From a virus, in the IMG/VR virus record IMGVR_UViG_3300046323_000234: DNA of 64,000 bases. One strand, 5' to 3'. Made by a program: the position numbers and the translations under genes. The stretch's first letter is position 1. Every line of letters starts with the position of its first letter. Below, piece after piece: positions 7,118 through 59,865 of the stretch. The notes beneath the pieces were generated by a model. That model ran no database searches. It worked only from the letters and a program-made list of their open reading frames with translations, and had not been told where the DNA came from.

Positions 7118-7393
7118 TTATTTGTTTATGTTTTTTAATTCGTTTGTATAATTATTTAATATTTCAGTTGTTTTATCTAAAATTGTTTTAACTGATATAT
7201 ATTCCTGTTCTGTAACTAATTTTGGATTTAAACATTCTATTCTAGAATTTTCACCCCTTATTGGAATAATATATTGAATAATATTATCGTCAGGGATTAA
7301 AACACTATCATTTACTCTACTAAGATATGTTTGACAATCTTCTGGTGAGATATTACCAATATCCACATAGAAAACTAATATGATTCTATCCAT
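7118..7393 (-). CDS. Hypothetical protein
   Basis: ORF tightly coupled in the operon. Confidence 0.6.
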   Translation of the reverse strand: MDRIILVFYVDIGNISPEDCQTYLSRVNDSVLIPDDNIIQYIIPIRGENSRIECLNPKLVTEQEYISVKTILDKTTEILNNYTNELKNINK

Positions 7394-28942: not shown

Positions 28943-28946
28943 TTAG

Positions 28947-29942: not shown

Positions 29943-29964
29943 TTAATATAAAAATATATACACA

Positions 29965-30255
29965 ATGGAAAAATGGAATTATGAAGTCCCAGAATCGATG
30001 CTGGAACAATTATTGGATACTGCTCAATCAGATTGGAATCAAACAATAATGGGATATTTTAATCAATTATCTGATGGAATAATTGGTGAAAAAGTAATTA
30101 AAGTACCTAATAAATTTAAGAAATTAATAAATAGTTTAGAATATTACGATAGAGAATCTAATGAGATTGCTAATAGATTTATTGTTATTTTTATTGATTC
30201 TAATGAAGATATTATATATGTTGGTGAAAATAAATTAGAAATATTAAATTATTAA
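29965..30255 (+). CDS. Hypothetical protein
   Basis: ORF in operon. Confidence 0.55.
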   Translation: MEKWNYEVPESMLEQLLDTAQSDWNQTIMGYFNQLSDGIIGEKVIKVPNKFKKLINSLEYYDRESNEIANRFIVIFIDSNEDIIYVGENKLEILNY

Positions 30256-30260
30256 AATAT

Positions 30261-32682: not shown

Positions 32683-33480
32683 ATGATTAATATAAACATG
32701 GTAGGTGGTGGATTTCAGCATGATATATGTTCTTCCGCACATAATAAAAATAAATATGTAATTTGGTATAAAGATAATAGTGCAAATATATCAATCCATA
32801 TAGATAATTCTATATTGGATGATATTGGATTAAATAAAAATAAAAAGAGATATGCTTGGATTGCAGAATCTAGCGCAATTAATGAAAAGGTAATTAATGA
32901 TATTAAATCCAATCTAACAAAAGTTTTGGAGAATTATGAATTAATATTCACACATGATAAAAGATTATTATCATTGGATGATAAATTTAAATTCGCAATT
33001 CCAAATGCATTACCTTGGGTTAAGGATAGACGAATATTTAATAAAACCAAACGAGTATCAATGGTTGCTTCATCAAAAGTTATGTGTGAAGGACATAAAT
33101 ATAGACATACTTGGATTAGTAGATTAAAAGGCAAAGTAGATCATTATGGTTGGGGATTTAATACCTTACCAAGTAAAGATTATGCTATGAATGATTATAT
33201 GTTTTCAATAGCAATGGAAAATGATAATTATCCAGATATTTTTACTGAAAAAATAACAGATTGTTTTGCAACTGGTACTATTCCAGTATTTTGGGGAACA
33301 CCCGATATAGACAAAAGATTTAACATGGATGGTATTATATTATTAACTGAAGAGTTTAATATTAATACATTAACGGCAGAATTATACTTTTCAAAAAATG
33401 AAGCTATGTTAGATAATTTCGAAAGAACTAAATTATTGGAATCTGCTGAAGATTATATATATCTAAATTATTTAAAATAA
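32683..33480 (+). CDS. GT10 alpha-1,3/4-fucosyltransferase-like protein
   Basis: YMFSIAMEN...FTEKITDCFATGTIPVFWG. Confidence 0.88.
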   Translation: MININMVGGGFQHDICSSAHNKNKYVIWYKDNSANISIHIDNSILDDIGLNKNKKRYAWIAESSAINEKVINDIKSNLTKVLENYELIFTHDKRLLSLDDKFKFAIPNALPWVKDRRIFNKTKRVSMVASSKVMCEGHKYRHTWISRLKGKVDHYGWGFNTLPSKDYAMNDYMFSIAMENDNYPDIFTEKITDCFATGTIPVFWGTPDIDKRFNMDGIILLTEEFNINTLTAELYFSKNEAMLDNFERTKLLESAEDYIYLNYLK

Positions 33481-33482
33481 GA

Positions 33483-34577
33483 ATGGATTTCTTTTCAACA
33501 ACAATATCACCACAAGCAATAAATAATGTTAATCAAGTATTAACAACAACACATGTTTCTGCTGGAAAACAAGCCAAGAAATTTGAACAAGCCCTATTTG
33601 ATAAGTTTGGTTTTCCAAATCCAATAACGTTAAATAGTGGCACAGTTACGATGAGATTGGCATTGATTGCTGCTGGTGTTAAAGAAGGTGATGAGGTTAT
33701 ACTACCAGCACAAACATTTATTGCAACTGGACACGTTATATTGCAGTGTGGTGCTAAACCGATATTCGCTGACATTAATCTTGATGGAAATATATCTGTT
33801 GAATCAATCAAGGAAAAGATTACAGAGAGAACGAAAGCAATAATTCCAGTTCATTGGGGTGGATATCCTTGCGATATGGATGAAATAAAAAAACTAGCCA
33901 AGAAACATAATATAATTGTTATTGAAGATGCTGCACATGCAATTGGTGCGAAATATAAAAATCAATATATTGGAAGTATATCTGATTTTACATCATTTTC
34001 ATTTCAAGCAATAAAACATTTAACAACTGGTGATGGTGGTTTATTAACTTGTCAAAATCCAGAACATGCTAAACTAATCCGAAGACTTGCTTGGTTTGAT
34101 ATTGATAGAGAAGATTCGAAAGTTGGAATATTAGGAGAAAGAGAATATGATGCAACAAATATTGGATATAAATATCATATGAACGATATTGCAGCCTCTA
34201 TTGGATTGGGAAATCTTGAAGCATTAGATAATAAATTAAAAAGGATTAAAGATATTGCCAATATTTATAACAATGAATTAAAAAATGTTGGTGGAATTAG
34301 ATTAATGAATTATAAATCAGATCGAGAGTCATCATATTGGTTGTATCCAATATTTGTAGAAAATAGAATTGATTTTATTAATAAATTAAAACGAAATAAT
34401 ATACCAACATCGGTTGTACATTTGGGTATTGATAAAAATACAATATTTGGTGGAAAAGATTATTCATTGGTTAATCAAAGATATTTCGATGATAATCAAA
34501 TACATCTACCGATAAATGATTCATTGACTGATGATGATATAAATAATATAATTAAAACAATTAAACAAGGTTGGTAG
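33483..34577 (+). CDS. DegT/DnrJ PLP sugar aminotransferase (perosamine synthase-like)
   Basis: NSGT, IIPVHWGG, IEDAAHA, SFQAIKHLTTGDGG with the catalytic Lys. Confidence 0.92.
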   Translation: MDFFSTTISPQAINNVNQVLTTTHVSAGKQAKKFEQALFDKFGFPNPITLNSGTVTMRLALIAAGVKEGDEVILPAQTFIATGHVILQCGAKPIFADINLDGNISVESIKEKITERTKAIIPVHWGGYPCDMDEIKKLAKKHNIIVIEDAAHAIGAKYKNQYIGSISDFTSFSFQAIKHLTTGDGGLLTCQNPEHAKLIRRLAWFDIDREDSKVGILGEREYDATNIGYKYHMNDIAASIGLGNLEALDNKLKRIKDIANIYNNELKNVGGIRLMNYKSDRESSYWLYPIFVENRIDFINKLKRNNIPTSVVHLGIDKNTIFGGKDYSLVNQRYFDDNQIHLPINDSLTDDDINNIIKTIKQGW

Positions 34578-34596
34578 TAGTCTATTTATATATAAT

Positions 34597-35970
34597 ATGA
34601 TAAAAACAATAATTTTCGATTTAGATGGTGTTTTAGCTGATCTAAAAGATTGTCACTATAATTCACTAAATAAAGCATTATCTGAAATAGATGATAAATT
34701 TATAATAACACAAGAGGAACATTTATCATTATATGATGGTCTGCCCACCAAAGATAAGTTAAAATTATTAACAATAAATAATGGTTTATTATTAAGTGAT
34801 TATGAATTCATTTCAGAAAGGAAACAGTATTATACTATAAATTATATTCAAAATAATATTAATATAGATAATAATTTAATAGAAGTATTATCCAATCTAA
34901 AAAAAGAAAATTATAAAATAATCGTTGCATCAAACTCAATAAAAAATACAATATACACATTTTTAGTTAAAGCTGATATTATACATTATATTGATGTGGT
35001 TTATTCAAATCAAGATGTAATATATTCAAAACCAAATTCAGAAATATATTTAAAAGCTATACAAAAATTTGGAAATACACCCCAAGAATGTTTAATTATT
35101 GAAGATTCACCACATGGTATAACTGCTGCATTGAATAGTGGTGCAAATGTTTTAAGAGTATCAAATCCAAATGGGTTAACATTAACTAAAATAATCAGTA
35201 AAATAGATGAAATTAATAATAATAAATTAAAAAATATGTGGGATGGTAGTGAATATAATATATTAATCCCAATGGCTGGTGCTGGAAGTAGATTTCAAAG
35301 GGCTGGATTTGATTTACCAAAACCATTAATAAATGTTAATGGTAAACCAATGATTCAATTGGTTGTTGAAAATTTAAATATAAAAGCTAATTTTATTTAT
35401 GTTGTACAAAAAGAACATTATAAAAAATATAATTTAGAGTATATTTTAAATTTATTAACACCAAACTGTAAAATTATACAGGTGGATAGTTTAACAGAGG
35501 GTGCTGCATGTACAACATTACTAGCAAAGGATTATATAAATAATGATAAACATTTAATAATTGCAAATTTGGATCAATTTATTGAATGGGATTCTAATTG
35601 GTTTTATTACAATTGTGAAAATAATAATATTGATGGTTCAATAGTAACGTTTCATGATAATAATCCTAAATGGAGTTATGCAAAGGTAGATGATCATACA
35701 AATAATGTTATAGAAGTTGCTGAAAAAAACCCAATAAGTAATAACGCCACAGTTGGTATTTACTACTATAAACATGGTTATGATTATGTAAAATATGCTG
35801 AACAAATGATAAATAAAAACATTAGAGTTAATAATGAATTTTATGTGTGTCCAATATATAATGAATTTATATTGGATAATAAAATAATAAAAACTTATAA
35901 CATAAAAAAAATGTGGGGAATTGGTATACCCGAAGATTTAAAATATTATTTAGAAAATTATAAAAATTAA
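34597..35970 (+). CDS. HAD phosphatase fused to a nucleotidyltransferase
   Basis: FDLDGVL, SKP, IEDS..G in the N-half; IPMAGAGSRF, PKPLI, TEGAACT, EVAEK, NNEFYV in the C-half. Confidence 0.88.
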   Translation: MIKTIIFDLDGVLADLKDCHYNSLNKALSEIDDKFIITQEEHLSLYDGLPTKDKLKLLTINNGLLLSDYEFISERKQYYTINYIQNNINIDNNLIEVLSNLKKENYKIIVASNSIKNTIYTFLVKADIIHYIDVVYSNQDVIYSKPNSEIYLKAIQKFGNTPQECLIIEDSPHGITAALNSGANVLRVSNPNGLTLTKIISKIDEINNNKLKNMWDGSEYNILIPMAGAGSRFQRAGFDLPKPLINVNGKPMIQLVVENLNIKANFIYVVQKEHYKKYNLEYILNLLTPNCKIIQVDSLTEGAACTTLLAKDYINNDKHLIIANLDQFIEWDSNWFYYNCENNNIDGSIVTFHDNNPKWSYAKVDDHTNNVIEVAEKNPISNNATVGIYYYKHGYDYVKYAEQMINKNIRVNNEFYVCPIYNEFILDNKIIKTYNIKKMWGIGIPEDLKYYLENYKN

Positions 35971-35974
35971 AAAA

Positions 35975-36601
35975 ATGGTTGAAATAGAAACAAATAGTTA
36001 CAATACAAATTGGCAAATATGTAGAATAAAATTTATTCTGAATAAATATCCAGAGGAATTTTGGTCTGGAAAGACAGTTTTAGAATTAGGTTCATATAAT
36101 GGTGTTATTGGCAATCATTTTAGAAAGTTAGGTGCAAATGTTACATCTGTTGAGGGTAGAATTGAAAATGTGAATAATATAAAACAACAGTTTAATCAAT
36201 TAAATGTATTACAATCTAATTTAGATACAAATAAATGGGAATTTGGTAAATTTGATATAATAATTAATTTCGGATTAATATATCATTTAGAATATTATCA
36301 TAAAGAACACATTATTAACTGTATAAATAATGCTAATCTAATATTTATGGAAACTGTTGTATATGATTCAAACGATGATTTTTATTTTCGAAATGAAGAT
36401 GGATTAGATCAATCATTATCTGGACGTGGTGGAATACCAAGTAGAAAATATATTGAAAATATATTTAAAGAATATAATATAAATTATGAACTACACAACA
36501 ATATCGAATTAAATGCAGATGGACACGTATATGATTGGGTTGATGAAAATAATAATACCACAACTGGTGGTAATAGAAGATTTTGGATTTTAAATAAATG
36601 A
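35975..36601 (+). CDS. Class I SAM methyltransferase
   Basis: VLELGSYNG, VEGR, FDIIINFGLIYHL. Confidence 0.85.
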   Translation: MVEIETNSYNTNWQICRIKFILNKYPEEFWSGKTVLELGSYNGVIGNHFRKLGANVTSVEGRIENVNNIKQQFNQLNVLQSNLDTNKWEFGKFDIIINFGLIYHLEYYHKEHIINCINNANLIFMETVVYDSNDDFYFRNEDGLDQSLSGRGGIPSRKYIENIFKEYNINYELHNNIELNADGHVYDWVDENNNTTTGGNRRFWILNK

Positions 36602-37071
36602 TATTTATTTCGCATAGGGGTAATATAAATGGAATAAATAATATTGATGAAAATAAACCAGAATATATATTAAATACAATAAATAGTGGATATGATGTTG
36701 AGTTTGATTTATGGGTTATAAATAATAAATTAATGCTTGGTCATGATTTTGGTCAATATGAAATTAGTTTGGATTGGTTAAAAAGTATTAATACATATTC
36801 TTGGATACATTGTAAAAATTTGGATGCACTTTCATTATTATCTGAATATAATATGTTTAATTATTTTTTTCATAATACTGATGATTATATACTAACATCA
36901 AAGGGTTATATATGGGCATATCCAAATAAATTAACGAATAATAAATGTATATCAGTAATGCCTGAAATAAATAATACAAACACTAATAATGTATTTGGTA
37001 TTTGTAGTGATAATATATATTTTTACAAAAAAAAATATGAAAATAGCAATACTACTATCGGGATCAATTAG
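36598..37071 (+). CDS. Glycerophosphodiester phosphodiesterase-like small protein
   Basis: ISHRGN, EN.P, DVEFD, LGHD, WIHCKN. Confidence 0.75.
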   Translation: MIFISHRGNINGINNIDENKPEYILNTINSGYDVEFDLWVINNKLMLGHDFGQYEISLDWLKSINTYSWIHCKNLDALSLLSEYNMFNYFFHNTDDYILTSKGYIWAYPNKLTNNKCISVMPEINNTNTNNVFGICSDNIYFYKKKYENSNTTIGIN

Positions 37072-37792
37072 ATGTTTAGAATATACATTTAATTATTTTC
37101 AAAATAATTTAATAAATAAATTAAAACAAGATGGGCATGAGCCACATATATTCATTAATACATATAATGATAAATATATGTTTAAAATAAGAAAATACAT
37201 AGAAGATTTTTCAAATGATATAAAAAATATAAAAATATTTGAAAATATAAATTATGATGATGAATTTATGAATATGATATCATCAAAAAGAATTGGTGGA
37301 CATTATAATAATTATAAACATTTTCTAGGACAGTTTAAAGGTATTGAAGATACAATTAAATTAATGATTGAATATGAAAAAAATAATTCATTTGAGTATG
37401 ATTTAGTAATTAAAATGAGACATGATATAATAAATTTAGTGCCAATTCAATTGCCTGATATAATAAAATTAAATACAATATATGTTTTACCATATGATAG
37501 ACAGAATGGATATAGTGATAAATTTTATTTCGGAGATAGAAGTTCAATGTGTAAATTATGTTTTTTTATAGAAAACTTAAAACAAAATATGTCTGATCAT
37601 GATTTTCTATCTGGTGAATATTTTTTAAAAAAAAGTATTGAATTAAATAATTTATCTGTGGAAGAGTTTTATAATCTAGTTTGTTTAGTTAGAGATTATG
37701 GTGACGAATTTCCACCATCAGAACGTGGTTGGTATAGTAATCAAATAATTGGTGGTATAACAATTGATAATTTAATTAAAACAGAGATTTAA
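37037..37792 (+). CDS. Putative glycosyltransferase-like protein
   Basis: Likely start at 37037 (MKIAILLSGSIR); YDLVIKMRHD and SDKFYFG motifs are typical of polysaccharide-cluster proteins. Confidence 0.6.
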   Translation: MKIAILLSGSIRCLEYTFNYFQNNLINKLKQDGHEPHIFINTYNDKYMFKIRKYIEDFSNDIKNIKIFENINYDDEFMNMISSKRIGGHYNNYKHFLGQFKGIEDTIKLMIEYEKNNSFEYDLVIKMRHDIINLVPIQLPDIIKLNTIYVLPYDRQNGYSDKFYFGDRSSMCKLCFFIENLKQNMSDHDFLSGEYFLKKSIELNNLSVEEFYNLVCLVRDYGDEFPPSERGWYSNQIIGGITIDNLIKTEI

Positions 37793-38383
37793 ATGGACGA
37801 AAATATATTTTTTGATAGATCAAAACTAAAATACTGTGGTGAGAATGTTATAATTGGTAAGACAGTTAGAATAAGAAAGCCCGAAGAATGTAGTATTGGT
37901 GATAATACAATTATTGATGATTTTACATATATATCATGTCCAATCCAAATAGGCAAGAATTGTCATATATCATCAAATATAAATATATCAGGTGGTGCTG
38001 GTTATTTTGAAATGGATGATTATTCAACATTATCATCACATGTATCAATACATACATGTTCATCTGATTACATAAATTTATCATTGGATTTACCATCAGT
38101 ACCAGAAGAAATGAGAACTGGTGGAGAGATTGGATTGGTTAAGATTGGTAAATTTGTAACTGTTGGTTCACATTCTGTTATACTACCAAATGCAATATTG
38201 CAACATGGAACATCATTTGGTGCATTTTCATTAATTAAAGATATAGATTATAAACAATTTACATTATATATTGGAAATCCTGTTAGAATATATGCGACAA
38301 GAAATTATGATGATTTATTAAAAAATAATTTATTTTCGGAAGAATTTTTTGAAAATCTAAAAAATAATATTATATTGCGTTGA
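37793..38383 (+). CDS. Left-handed beta-helix acetyltransferase
   Basis: Hexapeptide repeats IGKTVR, IGDNTI, IGKNCH, IGKFVT; GNP. Confidence 0.9.
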   Translation: MDENIFFDRSKLKYCGENVIIGKTVRIRKPEECSIGDNTIIDDFTYISCPIQIGKNCHISSNINISGGAGYFEMDDYSTLSSHVSIHTCSSDYINLSLDLPSVPEEMRTGGEIGLVKIGKFVTVGSHSVILPNAILQHGTSFGAFSLIKDIDYKQFTLYIGNPVRIYATRNYDDLLKNNLFSEEFFENLKNNIILR

Positions 38384-38384
38384 G

Positions 38385-39245
38385 ATGAAAATACTTTATA
38401 ATTTTGCACATAACAGATTTATAAATGCACAAGAAAAATGTGCAGTAACTGCTGTTAGTGTCGGTGGTTTTGATAAAACATATAAATATAGAATGTCTGA
38501 TATTGATGCAACATTTTATAATAAAAATAGACATATCTTAGATCAACCTAGAGGTGGTGGATATTGGCTTTGGAAATATTATTTTGCAGTTAAATTATTA
38601 AATGATATTAATATTCCAGAAGATAGTTATATTTTTTATTGTGATAGTGGTGCTCATTTTGTTGAAAACATTGATAAAATGATTGAGGTTATGGAAAAGC
38701 ATAATGAAAGTATTATGACATTCAGACAAACCCATTCAGCATATGTTTGGACAAAAAGAGATACATTTATATTAATGAATGCTGATGAACCTAAATATAC
38801 ACAAACTGGACAAAGAGTTGGTGGATTTTTCTTATTTAAGAAAAATAATTTATCAAGAAAATTCTTTAAAGAATGTTTGGAATATGGTGAAGATTATAGA
38901 ATTATAACTGATGCACCAAACCAATTAGGTGTTCCAAATTATGCTGGATTTAGAGATCATAGGCATGATGAATCATTAATATCCATTATGGCAAAGAAAT
39001 ATGATTTATTTCCATATAGAAACCCATGTCAGTTTGGATTTGAAAACGATGTAAATTATACAAATAATAGATACGATCAAGAGGGATATAATTTAATGAT
39101 TGAGAAATTTGGGCCAATGAGTGATTGGATAAATAAATATGGATGTTATTTTCATGGTGAATCAATTAAACAATATCCAGAAATTAACGTGGATGATAGG
39201 TCAACCTATCCCACTATTATAGATTTAACTAGGGATGGAAGATAA
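38385..39245 (+). CDS. Putative GT-A glycosyltransferase
   Basis: RGGGYWLWKY, FYCDSG, WTKRD, DHRHDESLIS. Confidence 0.65.
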   Translation: MKILYNFAHNRFINAQEKCAVTAVSVGGFDKTYKYRMSDIDATFYNKNRHILDQPRGGGYWLWKYYFAVKLLNDINIPEDSYIFYCDSGAHFVENIDKMIEVMEKHNESIMTFRQTHSAYVWTKRDTFILMNADEPKYTQTGQRVGGFFLFKKNNLSRKFFKECLEYGEDYRIITDAPNQLGVPNYAGFRDHRHDESLISIMAKKYDLFPYRNPCQFGFENDVNYTNNRYDQEGYNLMIEKFGPMSDWINKYGCYFHGESIKQYPEINVDDRSTYPTIIDLTRDGR

Positions 39246-40173
39246 AAAGAAAATATTAGTATTAGGTGGTAATGGATTTATGGGCATGAATATCCAATCC
39301 TATACAAAAAGAGATGATTCAATATTTTATTTTAAGAGTAGAAGAAATGGTATTGACTTACTGTTTCAGGATGGATTATTTAATTTTATTCAAGCGAATA
39401 ATATTGATATTATAATCAATTGTGCAGCAGTAGTTGGAAGTGTACATTTTGTTTCTTCAAATAAAGAAAAAATTATTCACGACAATACTCAAATATATTT
39501 GAATCTATATGATGTAGTAAAAAAATATACTGACGTATATAAAAGAAAGATTAAGATTATAAATCCAATATCTAACTGTTCATATCCTGGGGATACGAAG
39601 ACACAAATTGAAAGTGAATGGTGGAACGGTAAACCACATGATTCAGTATTTTCATATGCTATGTCAAAAAAGACATTGATTGGACTTGCAGAAACTTATG
39701 AGGGTGAATATATAACATCACATAATTTTATTATGCCGAATGCTTTTGGTGTGTTTGATTATACCGATCCAAATAGAGTACATGCATTAAATGGCCTGAT
39801 TATACGCATGATACAAGCACAAAAAGCTGGTGATAAGCAGTTCACCATCTGGGGTAGTGGAGAGCCTATTAGAGAGTGGATTTTCATGGAAGATGTGGCT
39901 AAGTTCATCAATATATTAATTGATGAAGATAAAAAACATCAGATGTTTAATTTGGGTCAAAATAAAGGATATTCAATACTTGAATCAGCCGAACTAATAA
40001 AAAAACATCTTGACTATGATGTTGAATTTGTTTTTGATAGAACCAAAATAGATGGTGATAAAATAAAAATAATGAATAATGATAAGACCAAAGAATTATA
40101 TCCAGATTTGGTATTTACTAAATATGATGATGGAATAAAAAAAACAATTGACTATTATCTAAGAATTTTATAA
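39235..40173 (+). CDS. GDP-L-fucose synthase-like NAD(P) epimerase/reductase (copy 1)
   Basis: GGNGFMG, CAAVVG, SNCSYP, YAMSK, HALNGLI, WGSGEPIREW. Confidence 0.85.
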   Translation: MEDKKKILVLGGNGFMGMNIQSYTKRDDSIFYFKSRRNGIDLLFQDGLFNFIQANNIDIIINCAAVVGSVHFVSSNKEKIIHDNTQIYLNLYDVVKKYTDVYKRKIKIINPISNCSYPGDTKTQIESEWWNGKPHDSVFSYAMSKKTLIGLAETYEGEYITSHNFIMPNAFGVFDYTDPNRVHALNGLIIRMIQAQKAGDKQFTIWGSGEPIREWIFMEDVAKFINILIDEDKKHQMFNLGQNKGYSILESAELIKKHLDYDVEFVFDRTKIDGDKIKIMNNDKTKELYPDLVFTKYDDGIKKTIDYYLRIL

Positions 40174-40174
40174 T

Positions 40175-40846
40175 ATGGATTTAACTTTAATACTCTGCAT
40201 TCACAGCAAAACAAAACTACATGATGATTTATTCATCAGATGTTTAACTGCATTAAGTAATCAAACAAAAAAAGATTTTATATTATTGATTAATTTCGAT
40301 GATTGTCATCCATCAACATTCGAATTGTTTAAAGACAAGATTCAAAACAATGAATTACAGTTCACCAATTATCAAGTTGTAATTTCAAATGAAAAGGCAA
40401 TTGGACATGCAAATGCAAAAAATAAACTTATACCACATATAACAACAAAATATACTGCGTTTCAAGATGCTGATGATTTTTCAGACGTTTTTAGATTGGA
40501 GAAACAATATAATTTTATGTTGGAAAATCAAGATGTTGATTTATTGGGTTGTTTAGGATATAATTTTGTTGATAATAATCTTGATGTATTAAATGAGGTA
40601 TATCCAACAAATAAATATACAACCGATAGCGACATTAAAAATATTATCCATAGAGAAAATTGTATAATTAATGGATCTGTTATGTTAAAAACAGATGTAT
40701 TACATAAATTAAATGGTTATAATATTAATCTAAAATATGGTGAAGATTGGGATTTTTGGCGCAGAGGGGCATATTTGGGACTTAAATTTCATATTTTGCA
40801 AGAAAGATTATATTATTATAGTATTGGCACAACAACAAGTTTTTAA
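40175..40846 (+). CDS. Glycosyltransferase family 2
   Basis: FDDC, FQDADD, RLEKQ, GEDWDFW. Confidence 0.88.
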   Translation: MDLTLILCIHSKTKLHDDLFIRCLTALSNQTKKDFILLINFDDCHPSTFELFKDKIQNNELQFTNYQVVISNEKAIGHANAKNKLIPHITTKYTAFQDADDFSDVFRLEKQYNFMLENQDVDLLGCLGYNFVDNNLDVLNEVYPTNKYTTDSDIKNIIHRENCIINGSVMLKTDVLHKLNGYNINLKYGEDWDFWRRGAYLGLKFHILQERLYYYSIGTTTSF

Positions 40847-40857
40847 ATATTAATAAA

Positions 40858-41778
40858 TTGAAAGAGAAAATAGTAGTAACAGGTGGTAGTGGTTTGATTG
40901 GTAAAGAATTACAAAAAATTGTAGGTAATAAAGATATTTTTTATTTTTTGTCTTCAAAGGATTATAATTTAACCAAAGAATTGGATGTTATTAAATTATA
41001 TTATGAATTAAAACCAACAAAGGTTATTCATTTGGCAGCCAGAGTTGGTGGTATATTGGATAATATGAATAATCAAACATTATATTTTAATGATAATATT
41101 TTGATGAATACATTGCTTGTTAAATATGCACATTTACATAATGTTAAATATTTCTTGGGCATAGCATCAACATGTGCATATCCAGATAAGGTAGAATCAT
41201 ATCCAATGGTTGAATCTGATTTCTTCAATGGAACACCAACCCAAACCAATTTCGCTTATGCATATGCTAAGAGATGTCAAGCTATTCAGATTGAAGCGTA
41301 TAGAGAGCAATTTGGTGTAAACTATGGATACATCATTCCAACAAATCTATATGGTATTGGTGATAAAAATGATGTAAATAAAAGTCATTTTGTAACAGCA
41401 TTAGTAAAGAAAATAATTGATGCCAAAAGAAATAATCAAGATGAAATAACATTGTTTGGTGATGGAACACCAATTAGACAATTTCTATTTGCTGAAGATT
41501 TGGCAAAAATTATATTGCATTATGTAAATAACGATATAACCGAAAGTGTAAATATTTGTAATGATGAAACATATACAATAGATCAAATAGCGAGAATAGC
41601 ATTGTTGGCAACTGATAGCTCCAACATAAAAATAAAATACGACAATACCAAACCAAACGGACAGTATAGAAAAGATGTAAGTAATCAAAAATTTAAAAAT
41701 CTATATCCAGATTTTAAATTTACATCACTATATGATGGTATTGAAAAAACATTTACTGAAGAATGCAAAAACCTATAA
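40858..41778 (+). CDS. GDP-L-fucose/colitose synthase (Fcl/ColC-like, copy 2), TTG start
   Basis: TGGSGLIG, HLAARVGGI, STCAYP, YAYAK, PTNLYG, SHFV, FGDGTPIRQF, KPNGQ. Confidence 0.9.
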   Translation: MKEKIVVTGGSGLIGKELQKIVGNKDIFYFLSSKDYNLTKELDVIKLYYELKPTKVIHLAARVGGILDNMNNQTLYFNDNILMNTLLVKYAHLHNVKYFLGIASTCAYPDKVESYPMVESDFFNGTPTQTNFAYAYAKRCQAIQIEAYREQFGVNYGYIIPTNLYGIGDKNDVNKSHFVTALVKKIIDAKRNNQDEITLFGDGTPIRQFLFAEDLAKIILHYVNNDITESVNICNDETYTIDQIARIALLATDSSNIKIKYDNTKPNGQYRKDVSNQKFKNLYPDFKFTSLYDGIEKTFTEECKNL

Positions 41779-42920
41779 AACTAGTATCCGATACAATTAA
41801 TAGAGATGATATAAACAAATTAATAGATTGGTTAAGTCAAGATCCTATACCAAAACTAAGTAAGGGTATTATAACAATTGAATTTGAAAAAAAGTTTTCA
41901 GATTATATTGGAACAAAATATTCTGTATTTGTAAATTCTGGTTCATCTGCTATATTAATGATGCTTTACGCATTATTAACAAAAAATAGACTAAAAAATA
42001 AAAAGGTAGTAGTTCCAAATATATCTTGGGTAACCGATGTAACTCATCCAATCCATATAGGATTAACACCACTATTATGTGATTGTAATTTAACTGATTT
42101 ATCTGTTGATTTAAATCACTTGGAAGAGTTATTTAAAACTGAACAACCATCAGCATTATTATTGGTATCAGTGTTGGGATTAACACCTGATATGGATAAA
42201 ATTGTTGAATTGTGTAATAAATATGGTGTTATATTATTGGAAGATTTTTGTGAAAGTTTAGGTAGTGAATACAACAATAAAAAAATAGGTACATTTGGAT
42301 TGATGTCTTGCACCTCTACATATTATGGTCATACAATGGCCACAATTGAGGGTGGAATAATATTTACAGATGATTATGAACTGTATAACCAACTTAAAAT
42401 GATTAGGTCACATGGTTGGGATAGAGACTTGGATAAACAAGCCCAAGATGATTTAAGATCGGAATGGAATGTTGATGATTTTAAATCATTATACACCTTC
42501 TATACCACTGGATTTAACCTTAGATCAACTGATTTACAAGCATTTATAGGTATATCACAACTGGATAAATTGGATTCTTTCATTAAAAAAAGAAACAAAA
42601 ACTTTCTATTGTATAATAATTTAATTAAAAATAATGAGATTAAAATTGACATCAGCCAATATATCTCTAATTTTGCATATCCAATAATCAATCCAAACAG
42701 AAAAGCAATTGTTAAAGATTTAATGGATAATAATATTGAAGTTAGGCCATTAATATCTGGCTCTATGGGCAAGCAACCTTTTTGGATTGAATTATATGGT
42801 GAAGAAAGATTTTTTAATTCAGATAAAGTGGATGAATTTGGTTTTTATGTACCAAATCATCAGGATTTAAATGAAGAAGACATTATTAGGATTTGTGAAA
42901 TAATTAATAAAAATATTTAA
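41763..42920 (+). CDS. ColD-like GDP-4-keto-6-deoxymannose 3-dehydratase (His-type PLP enzyme)
   Basis: VNSGSSA, LEDFCESLG, STYYGHTMATIEGG with His at the position of the aminotransferase Lys, RSHGW, GFNLR. Confidence 0.8.
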   Translation: MQKPIKLVSDTINRDDINKLIDWLSQDPIPKLSKGIITIEFEKKFSDYIGTKYSVFVNSGSSAILMMLYALLTKNRLKNKKVVVPNISWVTDVTHPIHIGLTPLLCDCNLTDLSVDLNHLEELFKTEQPSALLLVSVLGLTPDMDKIVELCNKYGVILLEDFCESLGSEYNNKKIGTFGLMSCTSTYYGHTMATIEGGIIFTDDYELYNQLKMIRSHGWDRDLDKQAQDDLRSEWNVDDFKSLYTFYTTGFNLRSTDLQAFIGISQLDKLDSFIKKRNKNFLLYNNLIKNNEIKIDISQYISNFAYPIINPNRKAIVKDLMDNNIEVRPLISGSMGKQPFWIELYGEERFFNSDKVDEFGFYVPNHQDLNEEDIIRICEIINKNI

Positions 42921-42982
42921 CATTTATTTTGTTTTTTTTTTTTGACTTTTCGATAATCTTTACATATTTATGTTAAAAGATT

Positions 42983-44083
42983 ATGAAATTTAACGGAGTA
43001 GTTAGGAGTGCTGTTCAGCAAAAAAGCAGCGAATTTATATGTGTTGGTGATTTCACCACATATAGTTCAGATGCATCTAGCGGTGAAACCAAAAATAGAA
43101 TTGTTAGATTATATAGTGGTGGCACTATTGATTCAACTTTTAAGACTGGCACTGGATTTAATGTCGCAGTACATACAGTATTGTTGCAACCAAATAATAA
43201 AATAATTGTTTCTGGTAATTTTACACAATATAGTGGACTTACCAAAAATAGAATTGTTAGATTGGAAGCAAATGGAACTGTTGATGAAACATTAAATATT
43301 GGTACTGGTTTTAATAATTTAGTTAATAGTACGGCATTACAATCTGATGGTAAATTAGTGTGTGGTGGTGCTTTCACAACATATGATGTTTTTTCTAGAA
43401 ATAGAATTATTAGATTATCATCTGGTGGTACTGTTGATAGTACATTCCAAATAGGGAGTGGATTTAATAGTACTGTACGAGGGATTACTATTCAAAAAAA
43501 TGGTAAAATACTTGTTGGTGGTGATTTTACATCATACAGTGGTGTAACTAGAAATAAGATGGTTAGATTAAATTCAGATGGTTCAATAGATGGAAATTTT
43601 CTAATGGGTACTGGAATATCTGGTGGATTAAATTATGTTTATAATTTCTATGAACAAACAGATGGAAAAATATTGGTTGCTGGTAGTTTTACATCATATA
43701 ATGGAGTTTCTAGAAATAAACTTGTTAGATTAACATCTGGTGGTACTGTTGATAATACATTCCAAATAGGAACTGGATTTAACACTGGTGCAACACATAT
43801 TAATTGTGTACAATCAAATGGAAAGATATTAATTGGTGGTAGCTTCACATCATACAGTGGCGTAACCAAAAATAGAATTGTTAGATTAGACTTTACTGGT
43901 GCAACTGATAATTCATTTGGCGTAACAAGTGGAACAACTGGATTTAACACTGGAGCACCATTTGCTGGATTAATAACGTTAAATAATAAAATTTTAATTG
44001 CTGGTAATTTTACAACATATAATGGTGTACCAGCAGGTGGTTTAATTATATTAAACGATGATGGTTCGATTTATTTAAGTTAA
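42983..44083 (+). CDS. Delta-60-type repeat beta-propeller protein, probably virion-associated
   Basis: About seven repeats of Q.DGKI..GG.FT.Y....NR.VRL...G..D..F..G.GFN; late-type motif ATATTTAT upstream and a terminator downstream. Confidence 0.85.
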   Translation: MKFNGVVRSAVQQKSSEFICVGDFTTYSSDASSGETKNRIVRLYSGGTIDSTFKTGTGFNVAVHTVLLQPNNKIIVSGNFTQYSGLTKNRIVRLEANGTVDETLNIGTGFNNLVNSTALQSDGKLVCGGAFTTYDVFSRNRIIRLSSGGTVDSTFQIGSGFNSTVRGITIQKNGKILVGGDFTSYSGVTRNKMVRLNSDGSIDGNFLMGTGISGGLNYVYNFYEQTDGKILVAGSFTSYNGVSRNKLVRLTSGGTVDNTFQIGTGFNTGATHINCVQSNGKILIGGSFTSYSGVTKNRIVRLDFTGATDNSFGVTSGTTGFNTGAPFAGLITLNNKILIAGNFTTYNGVPAGGLIILNDDGSIYLS

Positions 44084-44106
44084 ATATTTAATTATTTTAA
44101 TGAAAA

Positions 44107-44140
44107 GCCCCATATAAAATTTGTTATATGGGGTTTTTTA
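44107..44140 (+). terminator. Rho-independent terminator
   Basis: ccccatataa / ttatatgggg stem followed by T6. Confidence 0.8.
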
Positions 44141-44175
44141 TTTTAATTTGTATTTCTAATAATAGAACACATACA

Positions 44176-48430: not shown

Positions 48431-50121
48431 ATGGAGAAAACAACAAAAGATGAACTTATTAAAAAGTGGGAGGATAGTGGAATATTAGATGGACTTACTA
48501 AAATGGATGAAAATAGTAAAATTGTTAAATTATTTGAACCTAATTTAACACAAAAGATTTTTGAGAAAACAATACCCAATGATGATAAAAAAATCGAATT
48601 AACAACTGATGAGTTACTTAATTTACTAAAGGAGGCATATAGAAACGGCTATTCAACATATGAAATGGTGGATGCTGGATTAGAGCATTACGATGCTGAT
48701 GGTTATGCAAGGTGGGTGCTTTTTGGATTGAAACAGTAATTAAAATACAATGGCAGATCAGAAACTAATTGATAAATATCTTAAAGAATTTTATGAGGTA
48801 CAAAGATTGAAAGTACCAATAGAATTAAATAGTTATCTTCATAGAATGATAGATGAAGCTTTACATATACATGGTGTTAACATTTTGATTTGTGAAAAGT
48901 GTAATAAAAATGAACAATACGTAGAAGAAAATCCACTATGTTTAACATGTTTATTAGAAATTTATGATAAACAAAATAATAGTTAATAGATATATAAAAA
49001 TTAGTTTATACCTATGAAATACGAAGCACTTAGAAAAGAATATTATGCGGTTTATGAAAAAGAACCAGCACATCAAAACGAGAAAAATGGTGTGATATTA
49101 GCACCATATAATACAAAAGAAGAAGCTGAAAAAGCGAGAGTTAAATATGGATATGGTAATAATAACTATTATGTAGATAAACTCATAAATTAATTTTTAT
49201 TTAAAACGAAAATATTATGAATAACGAAAAAGTTGAAAATTTAGATATTAGCAGTAATAAATTACTTTTATCTGGCGTTAGTAGTACACTTACATTAAGT
49301 GGTGTGTTAAATATTAATGCAACTTCAAATGTAACAACTAAAATAAGTGGATGGTTTAGTGATAATTACAAGACTTATTATGTTGATGAAAGTGGTAAAA
49401 AGCATTACAATTAATGTTTACAAATATATAAAACTTAATTATTATGGATGAATTAAAATTTGACAAAGAAACAGCAGTAGCACTTTATCGTATATTCTGT
49501 GGATTAAGTACAAGTTGTTATCAAAATGCAGAAGTATATGATAAAGCAAAACCTAATATGAAAACTGCATACGATAAAGTGATTGAATGGGGTAGGAAAA
49601 ATTGTGATAATATTCATGGAAATTAAATTTATTGAAAGCCATAGCTTTGTGGGTGAATCTATGTATATGGTGGTAAACGAAAATTCACATAGTTTAGAAA
49701 TGGATAAAAACCAAACATATGCACAACATGCGATAAAGCTGCTAAAAGATATTTATAATATTGATAAGAAAATAGAAGATATTGAATTTGTGTGGGATGG
49801 TACTCTTTAATGGAGCAAACTTTAAATAAATACAAAATGAACTGGACAACAATTTTTAAAAGGGAAAAACCAACTGCGATAATGCCTGAACCAAAATTTG
49901 AAGATAATTGGAGGCAAGAACGTTATGAACAAAATGTAAAAGATGGTGTTTTATCTTTACAGAAAGGTAAAAGTATAAAAATAATGGATGATGGTAGAGG
50001 ATATGAATTAGCATTGGAAATAAAACACCGCTTTATGTTAGAATACCAAAAGCAATTGTCAGAAAAAATAAAAATTAATGGTAGAGATACAATTACAGTG
50101 TCGTTCCAAAATGGCATATAA
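48431..50121 (+). CDS. Run of small hypothetical ORFs (48431-48739, 48750-48986, 49014-49193, 49217-49414, 49444-49626, ~49616-49810, ~49810-50121)
   Basis: Co-oriented mini-ORFs; 49014-49193 read by hand. Several carry degenerate attC-like right arms. Confidence 0.6.
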
Positions 50122-50184
50122 CGGCTGCGTGTATGAAACGTAATGGATTATAACCACGAAACTTAATACGAAGTAGAAACGTAG
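50114..50184 (+). repeat. attC-like site, left arm only
   Basis: GCATATAAC overlaps the stop codon of the upstream ORF and is followed by a GC-richer arm with no matching right arm. Confidence 0.45.
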
Positions 50185-50189
50185 CATTT

Positions 50190-50279
50190 GATATAACGGT
50201 TGTGGATATGAGAAAAGAAAAAATACCAAATTCAAAAATAGAAAAAGATTTTTTACTTTCTTATATCCGTTGTTATCGG
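50190..50279 (+). repeat. attC-like site (complete imperfect palindrome)
   Basis: ATAAC-ggttgt-GGATATgAGAAA..AAAAAAT ... ATTTTTT..TTTCTtATATCC-gtt-GTTAT. Confidence 0.65.
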
Positions 50280-50353
50280 TCTGTAAAATTTCAATAATTA
50301 TTTTTTTTGAGGGGAGGAATTAATCAATTTAATGTTTTAATAAAAACAACAAA

Positions 50354-50443
50354 ATGGAAAATATATTTGTGAATTACGAAATAGCAAAACAACTAATGAA
50401 ATACGGATTTGCTGAAAAATGTGTGGCTTTGCACATACTTTAA
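50354..50443 (+). pseudogene. Probably truncated ORF fused into a partial attC-like site
   Basis: MENIFVNYEIAKQLMKYGFAEKCVALHIL stop; the last codons are part of the tgtggct/agccaca stem. Confidence 0.45.
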
Positions 50444-50494
50444 AATTATAGATAAATTTATTTAGCCACATTACTTATACACTTTGTTATAGGT
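50418..50494 (+). repeat. attC-like site lacking its outer left end
   Basis: tgtggct (50422) / agccaca (50464) stem, then ttacttatacacttt-GTTATAGG. Confidence 0.5.
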
Positions 50495-50516
50495 ATGTAA
50501 AATAAAACGGATTAAT

Positions 50517-50729
50517 ATGAACAATAAAATAAATAACAAAATGAATAAGGAAACAAGAAGTTTTATTTGGGGCTTAATTTTAGTCCTAATCTGTGGAAGC
50601 GGATTTGTTGTTCACATAATCGAAATTAAAATCGGGAAGCCAAGAGATTGGTATGATTGGACATTAATGGTATTAACTCTTTACGGATTAATCTCTGGTG
50701 GATGGCGTGTCTTTCGTGCTATCGATTAG
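50517..50729 (+). CDS. Two-TM membrane protein (cassette-like gene)
   Basis: Two hydrophobic helices; bounded by GTTATAGG upstream and CCGATAAC downstream. Confidence 0.7.
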   Translation: MNNKINNKMNKETRSFIWGLILVLICGSGFVVHIIEIKIGKPRDWYDWTLMVLTLYGLISGGWRVFRAID

Positions 50730-50733
50730 GGTT

Positions 50734-50832
50734 GCCGATAACGTTTTGCGTATATACGAGGTACGCCTTAACGAAATTTTACATTATAAACAAATGCTTG
50801 TAGGCGTATCTTGTATATACGCTGTTATAAGC
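50734..50832 (+). repeat. attC-like site (best copy)
   Basis: GCCGATAAC...GTTATAAGC ends; 21-bp inner stem gcgtatatacgaggtacgcct / aggcgtatcttgtatatacgc with 19/21 Watson-Crick pairs and 2 G-T pairs. Confidence 0.75.
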
Positions 50833-50848
50833 TGTAAAAATTACGATT

Positions 50849-50995
50849 ATGGCAACAGTTTACAAAGTAGAAGTAGTATCTCATTGGATTAGCTACTCAA
50901 AGGAAGAACTCGAAAAGATACTGACAGAAGCAGTAAAGGAGATTGAACGTGAAAAAGGAAATGAGATACAGATTAGAGTGGAAGAACGTAAGTAA
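50849..50995 (+). CDS. 48-aa cassette-like gene
   Basis: Read by hand: MATVYKVEVVSHWISYSKEELEKILTEAVKEIEREKGNEIQIRVEERK; flanked by 21-bp inverted repeats. Confidence 0.65.
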   Translation: MATVYKVEVVSHWISYSKEELEKILTEAVKEIEREKGNEIQIRVEERK

Positions 50996-51118
50996 TTTTT
51001 ATTGCTTATAACGATTATATATAAGCAATAAAATATAAAGTATTGAAAATTAATATTTTACAACACGAAAACTACTGACTATTACGAAATTTGTAAACAA
51101 AAATTGAAATATTAACAC

Positions 51119-51730
51119 ATGTTATCAAACCTAGCAAATATCATCTCAGATGATTCATTATTTAATTATAGTAATATCCCCTATATAAACTATTATAGTT
51201 CAACAGACACAATAATAGATACTAAATTACCAACACTAATAATTGGTTATAAACTAGCAAAACAAATATACAATTCTGGGATTGATATATTAAATAAGGT
51301 TGTTGCACCAAACCAAAAATATTGGACTTTTACAGCTGAGGAAAGAAATTTAGATTATATAAAAGATACCAAGCATTTTGTTGATAATGTAATAGGATAT
51401 TATCAATCCAATCAGAAATATATCAATTATGATCCATTATTTGCAAACAGTAAATCAATATATGATTTTATTGATTATATAAAAAATAAAGAGATAAAAT
51501 CATATAAGAATAAATATTCATTATATATAAAAACTGAAGATACAATTTTTGGATTTGATATGAGAATAATAGATAAATACTATCCAAATAACAATTTAAT
51601 AAATATTATATCAAACAAATCCAATTATTATCTTGATGATAATAATCTTATATTAAGCAGTTGTATAAAAAAATATGGAAATGAAATAAGTAATTGTAAA
51701 AAAATAATTGTTAATCTAATATCTGAATGA
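51119..51730 (+). CDS. Hypothetical protein
   Basis: 203-aa ORF (LPTLIIGY, YWTF..EE). Confidence 0.65.
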   Translation: MLSNLANIISDDSLFNYSNIPYINYYSSTDTIIDTKLPTLIIGYKLAKQIYNSGIDILNKVVAPNQKYWTFTAEERNLDYIKDTKHFVDNVIGYYQSNQKYINYDPLFANSKSIYDFIDYIKNKEIKSYKNKYSLYIKTEDTIFGFDMRIIDKYYPNNNLINIISNKSNYYLDDNNLILSSCIKKYGNEISNCKKIIVNLISE

Positions 51731-51974
51731 AACAACATATTATAAAAGACTATAAACTAAAAGTCCAACATGATTTTCTCGTACTAGAGGCGGTATTTAT
51801 ATCATCACAAATTCAAAATATTTGGATTCAATATTAAATGAAATTGTTTTTAATAATTTCACAAAAGAAGAATATATTGAGATGTTATCAAATATGCGTG
51901 AAAATCCAAATGAACAGACTTCAAGTTATAAAACGGCTATTAATGGTTTATTCGTTAACGTTTTAAAATTATAA
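51727..51974 (+). pseudogene. Frameshifted CxYIxEI-family member
   Basis: The ATG 51727 frame stops after 36 codons. The -1 frame encodes IYIITNSKYLDSILNEIVFNNFTKEE, homologous to IYIQLSTNSLYLDEILRMILNNLTNEE in the next gene. Confidence 0.6.
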
Positions 51975-51975
51975 T

Positions 51976-52680
51976 ATGGTACTTAGAATTATTAAATGTA
52001 ATAATATATTGTTAAAATCAATATCTGGGATTATTCCTAGTGATATTTTAAGTCCAAATGGTAAATTTATTTATATTCAGTTATCAACTAATAGTTTATA
52101 TTTAGATGAGATTTTACGGATGATTTTAAATAATTTAACCAACGAAGAAAATTCGGATTTGATGGGGTGTATAAAAACATATAAGTTTATTAGCGAAAAT
52201 AATCATTATCAAAAGAGATTACTACATGGTTATTATTGTAAAATAATTGAATTGTAATATATTACCAGATGATAAAAATAGTTAATAATTGCTCAAGTTA
52301 TTTAAATCCAATCCTAAATCAGATTCAAGATTCGTTATTACCAATTGAAATATTTGATTATATTGGTTATGAAATTTATATGAAAATTGGAAAACAGTTG
52401 TTAAATGTAAATGGTGGTAAAATATATTTAGAAACAGCTAGATATTATATAATAAATGATTTGATATATGTTAAATGCGTTTTAAATGAATAGTTTAAAT
52501 GTTGATATTAAATTTAAGTGCTGTAAACATGTTCAAGATATTATTATATTGATAGATAAAAACCTTTTAATAGATGAAAGATCAGATTGGTTTGATGTTA
52601 CCAGAATCTATTATCGTGAAAAATTAGAAAATAAATTCAATGTGATTGGAGATTTAATTTATTTGGAAATAACCGATTAA
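51976..52680 (+). CDS. Three CxYIxEI-family micro-proteins (51976-52257, 52269-52493, 52486-52680)
   Basis: NSLYLDEILRMILNNLTNEE; CSSYLNPILNQIQDSLLPIEI; CCKHVQDIIILIDKNLLIDE. Confidence 0.7.
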
Positions 52681-54077: not shown

Positions 54078-54102
54078 ATAACAACATTAAATAATAATAT
54101 TT

Positions 54103-54132
54103 AAGGCTACACATTAATTTATGTAGCCTTTT
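54103..54132 (+). terminator. Rho-independent terminator
   Basis: aaggctaca / tgtagcctt stem plus T tail; immediately followed by CTATTTAT at 54133. Confidence 0.7.
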
Positions 54133-54158
54133 CTATTTATATATAAAGAAAATATAAT

Positions 54159-58644: not shown

Positions 58645-59865
58645 ATGGAAGATAATATAATATACAAAATTTATGGATTATATGCTTTAGATGATGAATC
58701 TAAAATAATTAGATATGTTGGATATACAAAAAGAACGATTAAAAAAAGATTATCATCACATATTCACCAATCCAAAGAACGTGATACACATAAAGATCGA
58801 TGGATAAGAAAAAATAATCGTAATATTGATGTTATATTAATTGAAGATAATATAAATACGTATGAATTGGTTTTAGAACGTGAAATATATTGGATTGATT
58901 ATTATAAGAAAATTGGGAATGATTTAGTAAATAGTACTGCTGGTGGTGATGGCACTAAAGGTAGATCACCATCAATGGCTGAACGTGAGCGTTCTAGAAA
59001 GTTAAATTTAGGTAAAAAATTATCTGAAGAACATAAAGCTAAAATAGGTAAGTCACATAAAGGTAAAATACTATCATTAGAACATAAGCAAAAATTAAAA
59101 GATAAAAAACAAAATGTTAGTGATGAAACCAAACAGAAAATGTCGATTATGGCCGTTAGGAGATTTTTGAGAGAGAAAAATATATTTGTTGATGATTTAT
59201 TAAATGATGAAATAGTTCACATAAAACAATTAATAATTGAATATGATAATTTAATAAAACAATTGGTAAAAACCCCAAATGATGATATCGAGTTTTATAA
59301 AAATAAGAATTTTGAAAATAAATTAAATTATGAATTAAAAAAATCCGAAGAGTATAAATTAGGAATTTTAACAAATAATGCAATAGCAATAAAAATAAAA
59401 GAAGATAAATTAAATATAATCAGAGAGAGAGAATTAAAAAAGAATTTTTTAATTCAAGAAAAAATTAATAAACAGCAATTAATTAAAACCGAAAGAGAAT
59501 TAAAGAAACAAAAAGAATATGAATCCAGACAAAAATTAATTGATTCGGGTGATCTATATCAAATGGTTAATTCACTTGGTAAATTGATTTGGGTTAGAAA
59601 AACGTCTGAACAAACCAAACAAAAACTTAGAGAAGCTAATCTTGGTAAGAAATATAGTGAAGAAACAAAAAGAAAACATTCTGAAACCAATTTTAGGATT
59701 AGAAATGGTAAAAAGGGTGTAAAATTAACCGAAGGTGATATTAGAGAAATTAGAAGATTATGCGATAATGAGAAAACAACTAAAGAATTGACAGAAATAT
59801 ATAATATGGATTATTCAACAATCAGAAAAATAGTCCTAAGAAAATTATGGTCAGACATTAAATAA
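58645..59865 (+). CDS. Free-standing GIY-YIG (Seg-like) homing endonuclease with NUMOD3 repeats and C-terminal HTH
   Basis: IYGL...YVGYT...RL..H, EREIYWI, NSTAGGDG; GKKLSEEHKAKIGKSHKGK repeats; KLTEGDIREIR...YSTIRKIV...W. Confidence 0.88.
   Translation: MEDNIIYKIYGLYALDDESKIIRYVGYTKRTIKKRLSSHIHQSKERDTHKDRWIRKNNRNIDVILIEDNINTYELVLEREIYWIDYYKKIGNDLVNSTAGGDGTKGRSPSMAERERSRKLNLGKKLSEEHKAKIGKSHKGKILSLEHKQKLKDKKQNVSDETKQKMSIMAVRRFLREKNIFVDDLLNDEIVHIKQLIIEYDNLIKQLVKTPNDDIEFYKNKNFENKLNYELKKSEEYKLGILTNNAIAIKIKEDKLNIIRERELKKNFLIQEKINKQQLIKTERELKKQKEYESRQKLIDSGDLYQMVNSLGKLIWVRKTSEQTKQKLREANLGKKYSEETKRKHSETNFRIRNGKKGVKLTEGDIREIRRLCDNEKTTKELTEIYNMDYSTIRKIVLRKLWSDIK

Follow-up and report, generated by a model that had tools for sequence, protein, structure and literature searches.

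The stretch analysed here comprises 64,000 nucleotides (hereafter the window) of the virus record IMGVR_UViG_3300046323_000234, with a GC content of 22-34% and a dense gene packing. Between positions 50116 and 51033 it carries a short, partly decayed array, in which imperfect palindromes bounded by TAAC and GTTA boxes are separated by small genes (Table 1). The array sits in a run of small open reading frames (ORFs) resembling the hyperplastic regions of T4-type phages. A first-pass annotation, made from the letters of the window, had read it as integron attC-like sites and gene cassettes inside a phage genome. The two complete palindromes that it described are present, site A at 50194-50275 and site B at 50739-50827, about 440 nt apart. 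Folded as single-stranded DNA, site B, whose arms (50748-50768 and 50802-50822) are 21 nt each and 90% complementary, is far better than shuffled sequences (z -4.9 on the plus strand and -3.3 on the minus strand) and site A only moderately better (z -2.0 and -0.8, respectively). The complementarities reported between unit ends were recovered as well, both for the inverted repeat that brackets the 48-aa ORF (19 of 21 positions) and for GTTATCGG at 50272, which is the exact complement of CCGATAAC at 50735.

Table 1. Features of the array and of the surrounding window
Feature	Position	Strand	Description
Gene of 94-103 aa	49810..50121	+	Upstream edge of the array; stop codon TAA (50119-50121) inside the first TAAC box (50119-50122)
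Relic of a site 5' half, ATATAACGGCTGCGTGTATGA	50116..50136	+	Partner arm absent; 17/21 identical to 50191-50211 (start of site A)
Site A	50182..50287	+	TAAC 50194-50197, G, 5' bulge, AT-rich stem, loop, stem, GTTA 50272-50275, then TCGG
Decayed unit	50272..50489	+	Begins GTTATCGG; only a 29-aa ORF (50354-50443, MENIF...)
Relic of a site 3' half	~50470-50489	+	...CACTTTGTTA at 50489; closes the decayed unit
Unit with a 62-aa membrane-type protein gene	50486..50742	+	Gene 50541-50729; ends ...GGGTTGCCGATAAC
Site B	50727..50839	+	TAAC 50739-50742, G, TTTT bulge, 21-bp stem, 33-nt loop, T, GTTA 50824-50827
Unit with a 48-aa gene	50824..51012	+	Gene 50849-50995; own ends 50824-50844 / 50992-51012 complementary 19/21; ends TAAC 51009-51012
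Array end	50997..51033	+	Last TAAC, then the perfect complement of its own flank: 14-bp stem, 9-nt loop, no inner hairpin
Sugar-nucleotide/glycosyltransferase block	27428-44083		GDP-mannose 4,6-dehydratase, two DegT-type aminotransferases, epimerases, HAD/nucleotidyltransferase, family-2 glycosyltransferases, DUF5122 beta-propeller protein
Other genes encoded in the 64-kb window			PhoH-like protein, baseplate hub, UvsX-like recombinase, 5'-3' exonuclease, homing endonuclease, sugar-nucleotide/glycosyltransferase cluster

Other parts of the array are degenerate. The left-arm remnant said to overlap a stop codon is borne out by its similarity to the start of site A, and the region around it (50105-50195) does not fold (z +0.3 against shuffles). 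Of the right-arm remnant proposed at 50418-50494, the last ~20 nt do resemble the 3' end of a site, but the segment neither folds (z +0.4) nor obtains a score from the covariance model described below; it lies upstream of the 62-aa gene, in the position that a full site occupies in five relatives. Single small ORFs between sites, also part of the first-pass reading, are found in the 62-aa and 48-aa units, but not in the unit at 50272-50489, which holds only the 29-aa relic and no plus-strand ORF longer than 31 aa. Another ORF beginning MENIF, possibly related to this relic, occurs in an intact unit (2947-3159) of the viral contig L011. The true start of the 62-aa gene, set by five protein relatives, is 50541, which is M9 of the ORF as listed. 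The hairpin that ends the array (z -4.2) may be an empty site or a terminator. At the opposite edge, the 94-aa gene (49837-50121) has homologs at 62-83% amino acid identity in nine viral contigs, in nine different neighbourhoods; as none of them has another gene in common with the window within 6 kb, a synteny comparison of the whole region was impossible. One of these homologs adjoins a tRNA-like sequence (L002), and in the window alone the last codons of the gene are remodelled, so that its stop falls in the TAAC box.

The sites belong to a family with a defined structure. A covariance model, R1, was built from 30 diverse sites of other phages and bacteria, none of them from the window. When run on both strands of the 64 kb (128 kb of search space), this family-specific model found exactly site B (52.6 bits, E 1.3e-9) and site A (28.4 bits, E 2.5e-4), both on the plus strand; the next-best match in the window scored 12 bits (E 0.9). 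The general form is TTG-NN(N)-ATAAC-G-(4-6-nt bulge)-stem-loop-stem-(1-2 nt)-GTTAT-NN(N)-CTG, with TAAC and GTTA boxes that both window sites possess and that hardly vary among the 30 aligned ones, four of which read GTTG. The alignment contains 21 consensus pairs, 12 of them with compensatory changes on both sides, and its paired cells amount to 92.8%, compared with 78.3% in shuffles, none of which out of 500 reached the observed value, and 35-59% after sliding of the partners. The G·T cells number about 87 and the A·C cells 3, indicating that the strand reading TAACG...GTTA is the folding one, and an invariant G·T closes the TAACG/TGTTA helix. The bulge is 4-6 nt (5-6 nt in the consensus) beside TAACG, on the AAC-side arm, and only 1-2 nt before GTTA; it is this bulge, together with the conserved G·T pairs, that gives the family its strand asymmetry. 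Extrahelical bases of the attC type, which the first-pass annotation proposed to look for on folding, did not appear, since in the consensus of the 30 sites no single-base bulge is conserved on the arm across from the AAC side. Rfam gave no match at gathering thresholds; in E-value mode it returned only sub-threshold look-alikes of microRNA precursors on the hairpins, which we took as generic hairpin matches.

A pattern for a long (~126-nt) subfamily matched 97 stretches in bacterial contigs, nearly all of them from Bacteroidota, against ~9 expected by chance (the search set holds one genome per species and the expectation is our own calculation), and 40 stretches in viral contigs. One ~126-nt variant (TAACGTTTTTCGGCTTGGCGATGTGGCGGAT...GCCGCCATATTGCCAAACCGATGTTAGCGG) has nearly the same sequence in dozens of species (L029-L107; e.g. 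L031:641-800, L046:6721-6880 and L075:4257-4416), its carriers belonging to different Bacteroidota families and including Chitinophagaceae, Flavobacterium, Pedobacter, Chryseobacterium, Runella and Hymenobacter. This is far more conservation than expected of a fast-evolving recombination site and suggests that the variant either spread recently or is under an additional constraint. In their loops, the long sites contain two conserved copies of AGCAC in direct orientation (alignment columns 48-56 and 108-116), possibly binding sites for an accessory protein.

The array boundaries recur in other contexts, as the first-pass reading implied, and they do so with sharp exchange points at the boxes. 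The 62-aa gene is found in six unrelated viral contigs (27-42% GC) at ~95-97% DNA identity, and in every one of the six this identity stops exactly at ...GCCG(A/C)TAAC. In most of these contigs the gene is flanked by the same hairpin base (TAAC-G-bulge-stem...stem-N-GTTAT) with different inner stems, and in L014 and L015, which have the upstream hairpin as well as the gene in common, the sequences diverge immediately 5' of TAAC. The ends of the 62-aa unit in the relatives (GTTATCGGCTGCCC and GGGTTGCCGATAAC) are complementary at 8 of 10 positions beyond the core. Site B recurs alone: the segment 50738-50827, running from ATAAC to GTTA only, is 100% identical in the viral contigs L174 and L175, where both flanks differ and nothing else matches the window. 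Metagenome contigs aligned to the region break off at 50735-50739, 50821-50827 and 51010, and in one metagenome run site B is covered several times more deeply than its flanks. Metagenome contigs also keep the ends of the 48-aa unit with other content between them, and the same ends bracket a different gene, of 102 aa, at 3252-3600 of L011. L011, which is from the same phage as a 96%-complete contig of 68.9 kb, has eight sites in one orientation and single genes between them, apparently including DNA methyltransferases, one with an NPPY motif (assigned without a family search).

Several further arrangements were observed at phage sites. In long ones (L011:4132-4256, 6571-6698 and 7005-7130) the next gene has its ATG in the loop, and the 3' arm together with the GTTA box encodes an N-terminal peptide, ..VSPxFGxxVLPA.., that is common to otherwise different proteins; at L010 5199-5325 the frame of this peptide stops at a TAG inside GTTAG, leaving a 15-aa relic. 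At some unit ends, a recurrent sequence without a hairpin directly follows TAAC (TAAC-TCAYYGCTAACCGAACCTTTATATCG...CTAACCAAACTTAAAAA), namely downstream of the 62-aa gene in L013 and L015 and at L174:5830-5885 and 6559-6614; it could be an array end site or a phage promoter. A circle or tandem unit of 730 nt that we had suspected in L174 turned out to be a direct repeat of ~186 nt, which includes this sequence and has its copies 730 nt apart. The same contig carries at 6200-6240 a 29-nt 'empty unit' (GTTATAAAATCGTTTTAATGTTTTATAAC) between two sites, with two boxes and complementary flanks and no gene.

The first-pass annotation had reported that no integrase is encoded in the window, and neither a six-frame tblastn search with the bacterial recombinase described here (best E ~1) nor a comparison of window ORFs with family libraries, which covered about two thirds of those of at least 150 aa, revealed a tyrosine recombinase. 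In bacterial site loci, a tyrosine recombinase is the only recurrent neighbour. It scores 226 bits, above the cut-off, with NF040815 ('site-specific tyrosine recombinase/integron integrase'), and its best solved relatives are the archaeal XerA structures 4a8e and 5hxy. It matches IntI models in two pieces only, leaving positions 193-252 of the IntI1 model unmatched, so that this XerA-like recombinase appears to be devoid of the IntI-specific insertion. Searches of five whole genomes gave five homologs above 180 bits, of which four are located 0.9-5.9 kb from a site; as the share of these genomes lying within 6 kb of a site is at most 4.6%, the chance of such proximity is ~2e-5. No comparably consistent adjacency is seen for the ordinary Xer paralogs (107 bits or less), although one of them is ~4 kb from a lone site. 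In Olleya, at least 27 sites, all on one strand, extend over 40 kb and start within 1 kb after the recombinase gene; 9 of 25 units in this array have own ends complementary at 8 or more of 10 positions, compared with none of 27 for the two flanks of the same hairpin. Genes next to bacterial sites run antisense to the folding strand in 98 of 113 informative flanks, whereas those of phage loci are sense to it (24/24 and 51/51 informative flanks). This opposite orientation points to a shared constraint on the DNA and not on the mRNA: it is as DNA that the sites have their conserved role, and any role in RNA can be no more than secondary. It is also an unexpected rule that any mechanism must explain.

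Taken together, our results make it probable that 50116-51033 is an integron-like gene cassette array without a recombinase of its own, shuffled via a recombinase of the host, and we regard this as the best explanation of the locus. As the same site family lies beside a tyrosine recombinase in Bacteroidota, the likely host phylum (see below), a recombinase provided in trans is the best reading. The strand reading TAACG...GTTA would fold as single-stranded DNA, bringing the AAC and GTT boxes together in a short duplex, where a tyrosine recombinase would cut and exchange strands. Genes with their sites could thereby be excised, captured and reshuffled between co-infecting phages. The most likely source of the enzyme would be a host recombinase of the XerA-like type that adjoins the long arrays of the same sites in Bacteroidota chromosomes, and both its action on phage DNA and the chemistry of the reaction are inferred, as is recombination itself. 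The suggestion in the first-pass annotation that the phage acquires accessory genes as cassettes through a tyrosine recombinase thus holds in part: the sites covary and are strand-specific, the units are mobile, their own ends are complementary and a XerA-like enzyme stands by arrays in the likely host phylum, but neither a classical attC geometry nor an IntI is found.

Several observations weigh against this explanation. First, exchange is seen at both boxes, as site B recurs alone and the 62-aa gene occurs with different hairpins on both sides, which is not predicted by the one-strand, one-cut integron reaction; one may speculate that an occasional use of the other strand accounts for it. 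Second, the bulge of the site family is on the arm opposite to that which bears the extrahelical bases of classical attC sites. Third, five related viral contigs, including one that is 96% complete, lack a recombinase (PF00589), and a homolog is encoded by only one of 40 viral site loci (L141), making action in trans an assumption; when viral contigs were searched with the recombinase, three loci were found, none of them with a model-detectable site within 6 kb. Fourth, exchange was read from assembled contigs only, and no circular or rearranged molecule was observed directly. Finally, the only member of the family to have been tested, P12002L_attC1, which had been predicted by HattCI alone, gave no verified IntI1 product or junction (PMC9892861). 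It comes from one of the 17 clusters of attC sites lacking integron-integrases (CALINs) described in phage genomes, that of Polaribacter phage P12002L (Qi et al. 2023, PMC9892861), in which R1 finds six sites of the family, the match at 29996-30068 being P12002L_attC1.

The exchange at both ends of the hairpins is what would be expected from recombination between any two shared motifs, and the promoter-early stem-loops (PeSLs) of T4-type phages, for which a modular shuffling was proposed (PMC2839356, PMC4122927), offer an alternative, although in our opinion an unlikely one. The hairpins would then be conserved regulatory motifs between early genes, and the UvsX-like homologous recombination of the phage, acting on these short motifs, would exchange the units without any site-specific enzyme. 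Like PeSLs, they are stem-loops placed among the small accessory genes of plastic regions in large phages; a UvsX-like recombinase is encoded in the window, its run of small ORFs is similar to the T4-type hyperplastic regions, and no site-specific recombinase was found in it or in the five related viral contigs. However, the sequence common to the break points is only ~5-11 nt long (TAACG, GTTA and short flanks), and the conserved part consists of two 4-5-nt boxes and a structure instead of the ~50-nt sequence of PeSLs. There is no promoter module: the 21 nt separating GTTA from the ATG of the 48-aa gene (50849) leave no room for a promoter, and matches to a sigma-70 model, which does not describe Bacteroidota-type promoters, are not enriched (67 against 62 expected). 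In addition, homology between double strands needs neither the strict single-strand asymmetry nor the G·T bias, and, unlike PeSLs, the site family is also present in bacterial chromosomes, where its long arrays adjoin a tyrosine recombinase in organisms without such phage machinery.

It is improbable that the hairpins act mainly in phage mRNA, as processing sites, attenuators or presenters of translation starts, with the cassette pattern as a by-product. The sense orientation of the folding strand in all 75 informative phage flanks, the tolerance of RNA for G·U pairs and the start codon of the next gene in the loop of long sites would fit such a role, which may exist in phages as a secondary one. 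The same strand-biased sites are nevertheless antisense to genes in the bacterial loci, no Rfam family matches them, and neither the own-end complementarity nor the exchange at the boxes would be explained. Their stems are also not followed by a T-run, unlike the ordinary terminators of this phage, hairpins of canonical form at 44094-44147 and 54087-54146; intrinsic terminators were considered for sites A and B and rejected, the scan calling none at either.

Units with terminal inverted repeats of 14-21 nt and a site B that is multi-copy and identical in other contigs recall MITEs (miniature transposable elements with inverted repeats), a census of which is available for those common to Bacteroidota and their viruses (PMC11602168). 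Here too we assign a low probability, because the array sites are all in one orientation and alternate regularly with single genes, the boundaries that were compared show no target-site duplication and are the invariant boxes themselves, and the enzyme that accompanies the sites in bacteria is a tyrosine recombinase; close to the arrays inspected we saw no transposase, in a search that was neither exhaustive nor systematic. Chance palindromes, which DNA of 26-28% GC might provide through its many weak inverted repeats and of which site A, taken alone (z -2.0), could have been one, are refuted for practical purposes by the covariance-model matches (E 1.3e-9 and 2.5e-4, with nothing else in the 128 kb below E 0.8) and by exact or near-exact copies elsewhere, among them the identical copies of site B in other contigs. 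PeSL-type shuffling, a primary RNA function, MITEs and chance all rank below the cassette array.

Classical attC sites, in work attributed to Bouvier in 2009 and Nivina in 2016, reportedly combine a near-symmetric spacer with extrahelical bases, which lie across from the cleaved AAC box on the other arm and are said to govern the choice of strand. The sites of the present family resemble attC sites and those of CALINs in being imperfect palindromes bounded by AAC...GTT, with a variable apex and an asymmetry between strands, and in forming a covarying single-strand fold with paired inner boxes (21 pairs, 12 compensatory). As in integrons, the arrays have one orientation and separate mostly single, promoter-less genes, and the start of a unit complements its own end (19/21 in the 48-aa unit, and likewise in the 62-aa unit of relatives and in Olleya). 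The array resembles phage CALINs in having no integrase on the phage and, in its relatives, apparent DNA methyltransferases as frequent cargo; with two sites found by the family-specific model, half-site relics and no recombinase found in the 64 kb, it has the composition by which a CALIN is recognized, namely two or more sites only a few kb apart with no integrase close by. The differences are as follows. The bulge of 4-6 nt on the AAC side faces 1-2 nt on the other arm, with no near-symmetric spacer, and the extended boxes GTTATCG and GTTATAA do not fit GTTRRRY. Phage genes lie on the folding strand and after their site, while bacterial loci follow the classical, antisense arrangement. Exchange is seen at both boxes of the site family, unlike in the one-cut integron reaction, and, in contrast to a complete integron, there is no adjacent intI with the IntI-specific insertion, the bacterial partner being XerA-like.

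The Bacteroidota arrays are similar to sedentary chromosomal integrons such as those with Vibrio repeats in their length (at least 27 sites over 40 kb in Olleya), uniform orientation and sites of ~126-150 nt, in genes that run antisense to the folding strand, and in having a gene for a tyrosine recombinase at one end. They differ in that the recombinase is XerA-like, that the array is downstream of the recombinase gene and that the cassette genes of Olleya point the same way as that gene. Hardly any integrons are reported from Bacteroidetes by IntegronFinder 2.0 (PMC9024848). The integron-like system of Bacteroidota and their phages seems to be barely described. With less assurance than for the array itself, and at somewhat below even confidence, we propose that Bacteroidota and their phages share an analogue of the integron, based on a XerA-like recombinase without the IntI insertion and on distinct attC-like sites of which both boxes are usable. 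The phage arrays would be its clients, rearranged by the host enzyme during infection, and their cassettes would be reversed, often with the start codon in the loop, by which the phage and bacterial pools would be kept apart.

The window is part of a large myovirus-type phage, as shown by its gene content (Table 1), by its UvsX-like protein, closest to that of the Flavobacterium phage vB_FspM_immuto phages (160-kb; 45% identity), and by the sequencing runs containing the stretch, which are freshwater metagenomes. Its host is probably a member of the Bacteroidota, Flavobacterium-like and living in freshwater. A blastn search of 49000-52500 against 50,697 phage records gave no match, no tRNA genes were found in the 64-kb window, and the 203-aa gene located 3' of the array (51119-51730) has no relatives among viral contigs. 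Elsewhere in the window, the ~17-kb sugar-nucleotide/glycosyltransferase block is an unusual phage cargo, an IMP dehydrogenase/GMP reductase-like gene lies on the minus strand at 18546-19790 amid plus-strand genes of structural appearance, and a free-standing homing endonuclease (58645-59865; PHROG 314, with an HNH tail and a NUMOD3 motif) directly follows the UvsX-like gene.

Integrons are seen as devices mainly of Proteobacteria, with IntI as their defining feature, and to our knowledge only a handful of integrase-less attC clusters have been found in phages. The copy in the window is small and partly decayed, and its value is thus that of one more well-delimited example with sharp comparative break points. 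If the sites do form part of a working recombination system, Bacteroidota, which are among the most abundant bacterial phyla in water, soil and gut, and their phages would possess a cassette-exchange machinery of their own that standard tools have largely missed. Such a system would also answer an old question with a concrete, testable mechanism by which lytic phages swap small accessory and anti-defence genes with base-pair precision, to which the many cassettes of relatives that appear to encode DNA methyltransferases would be relevant.

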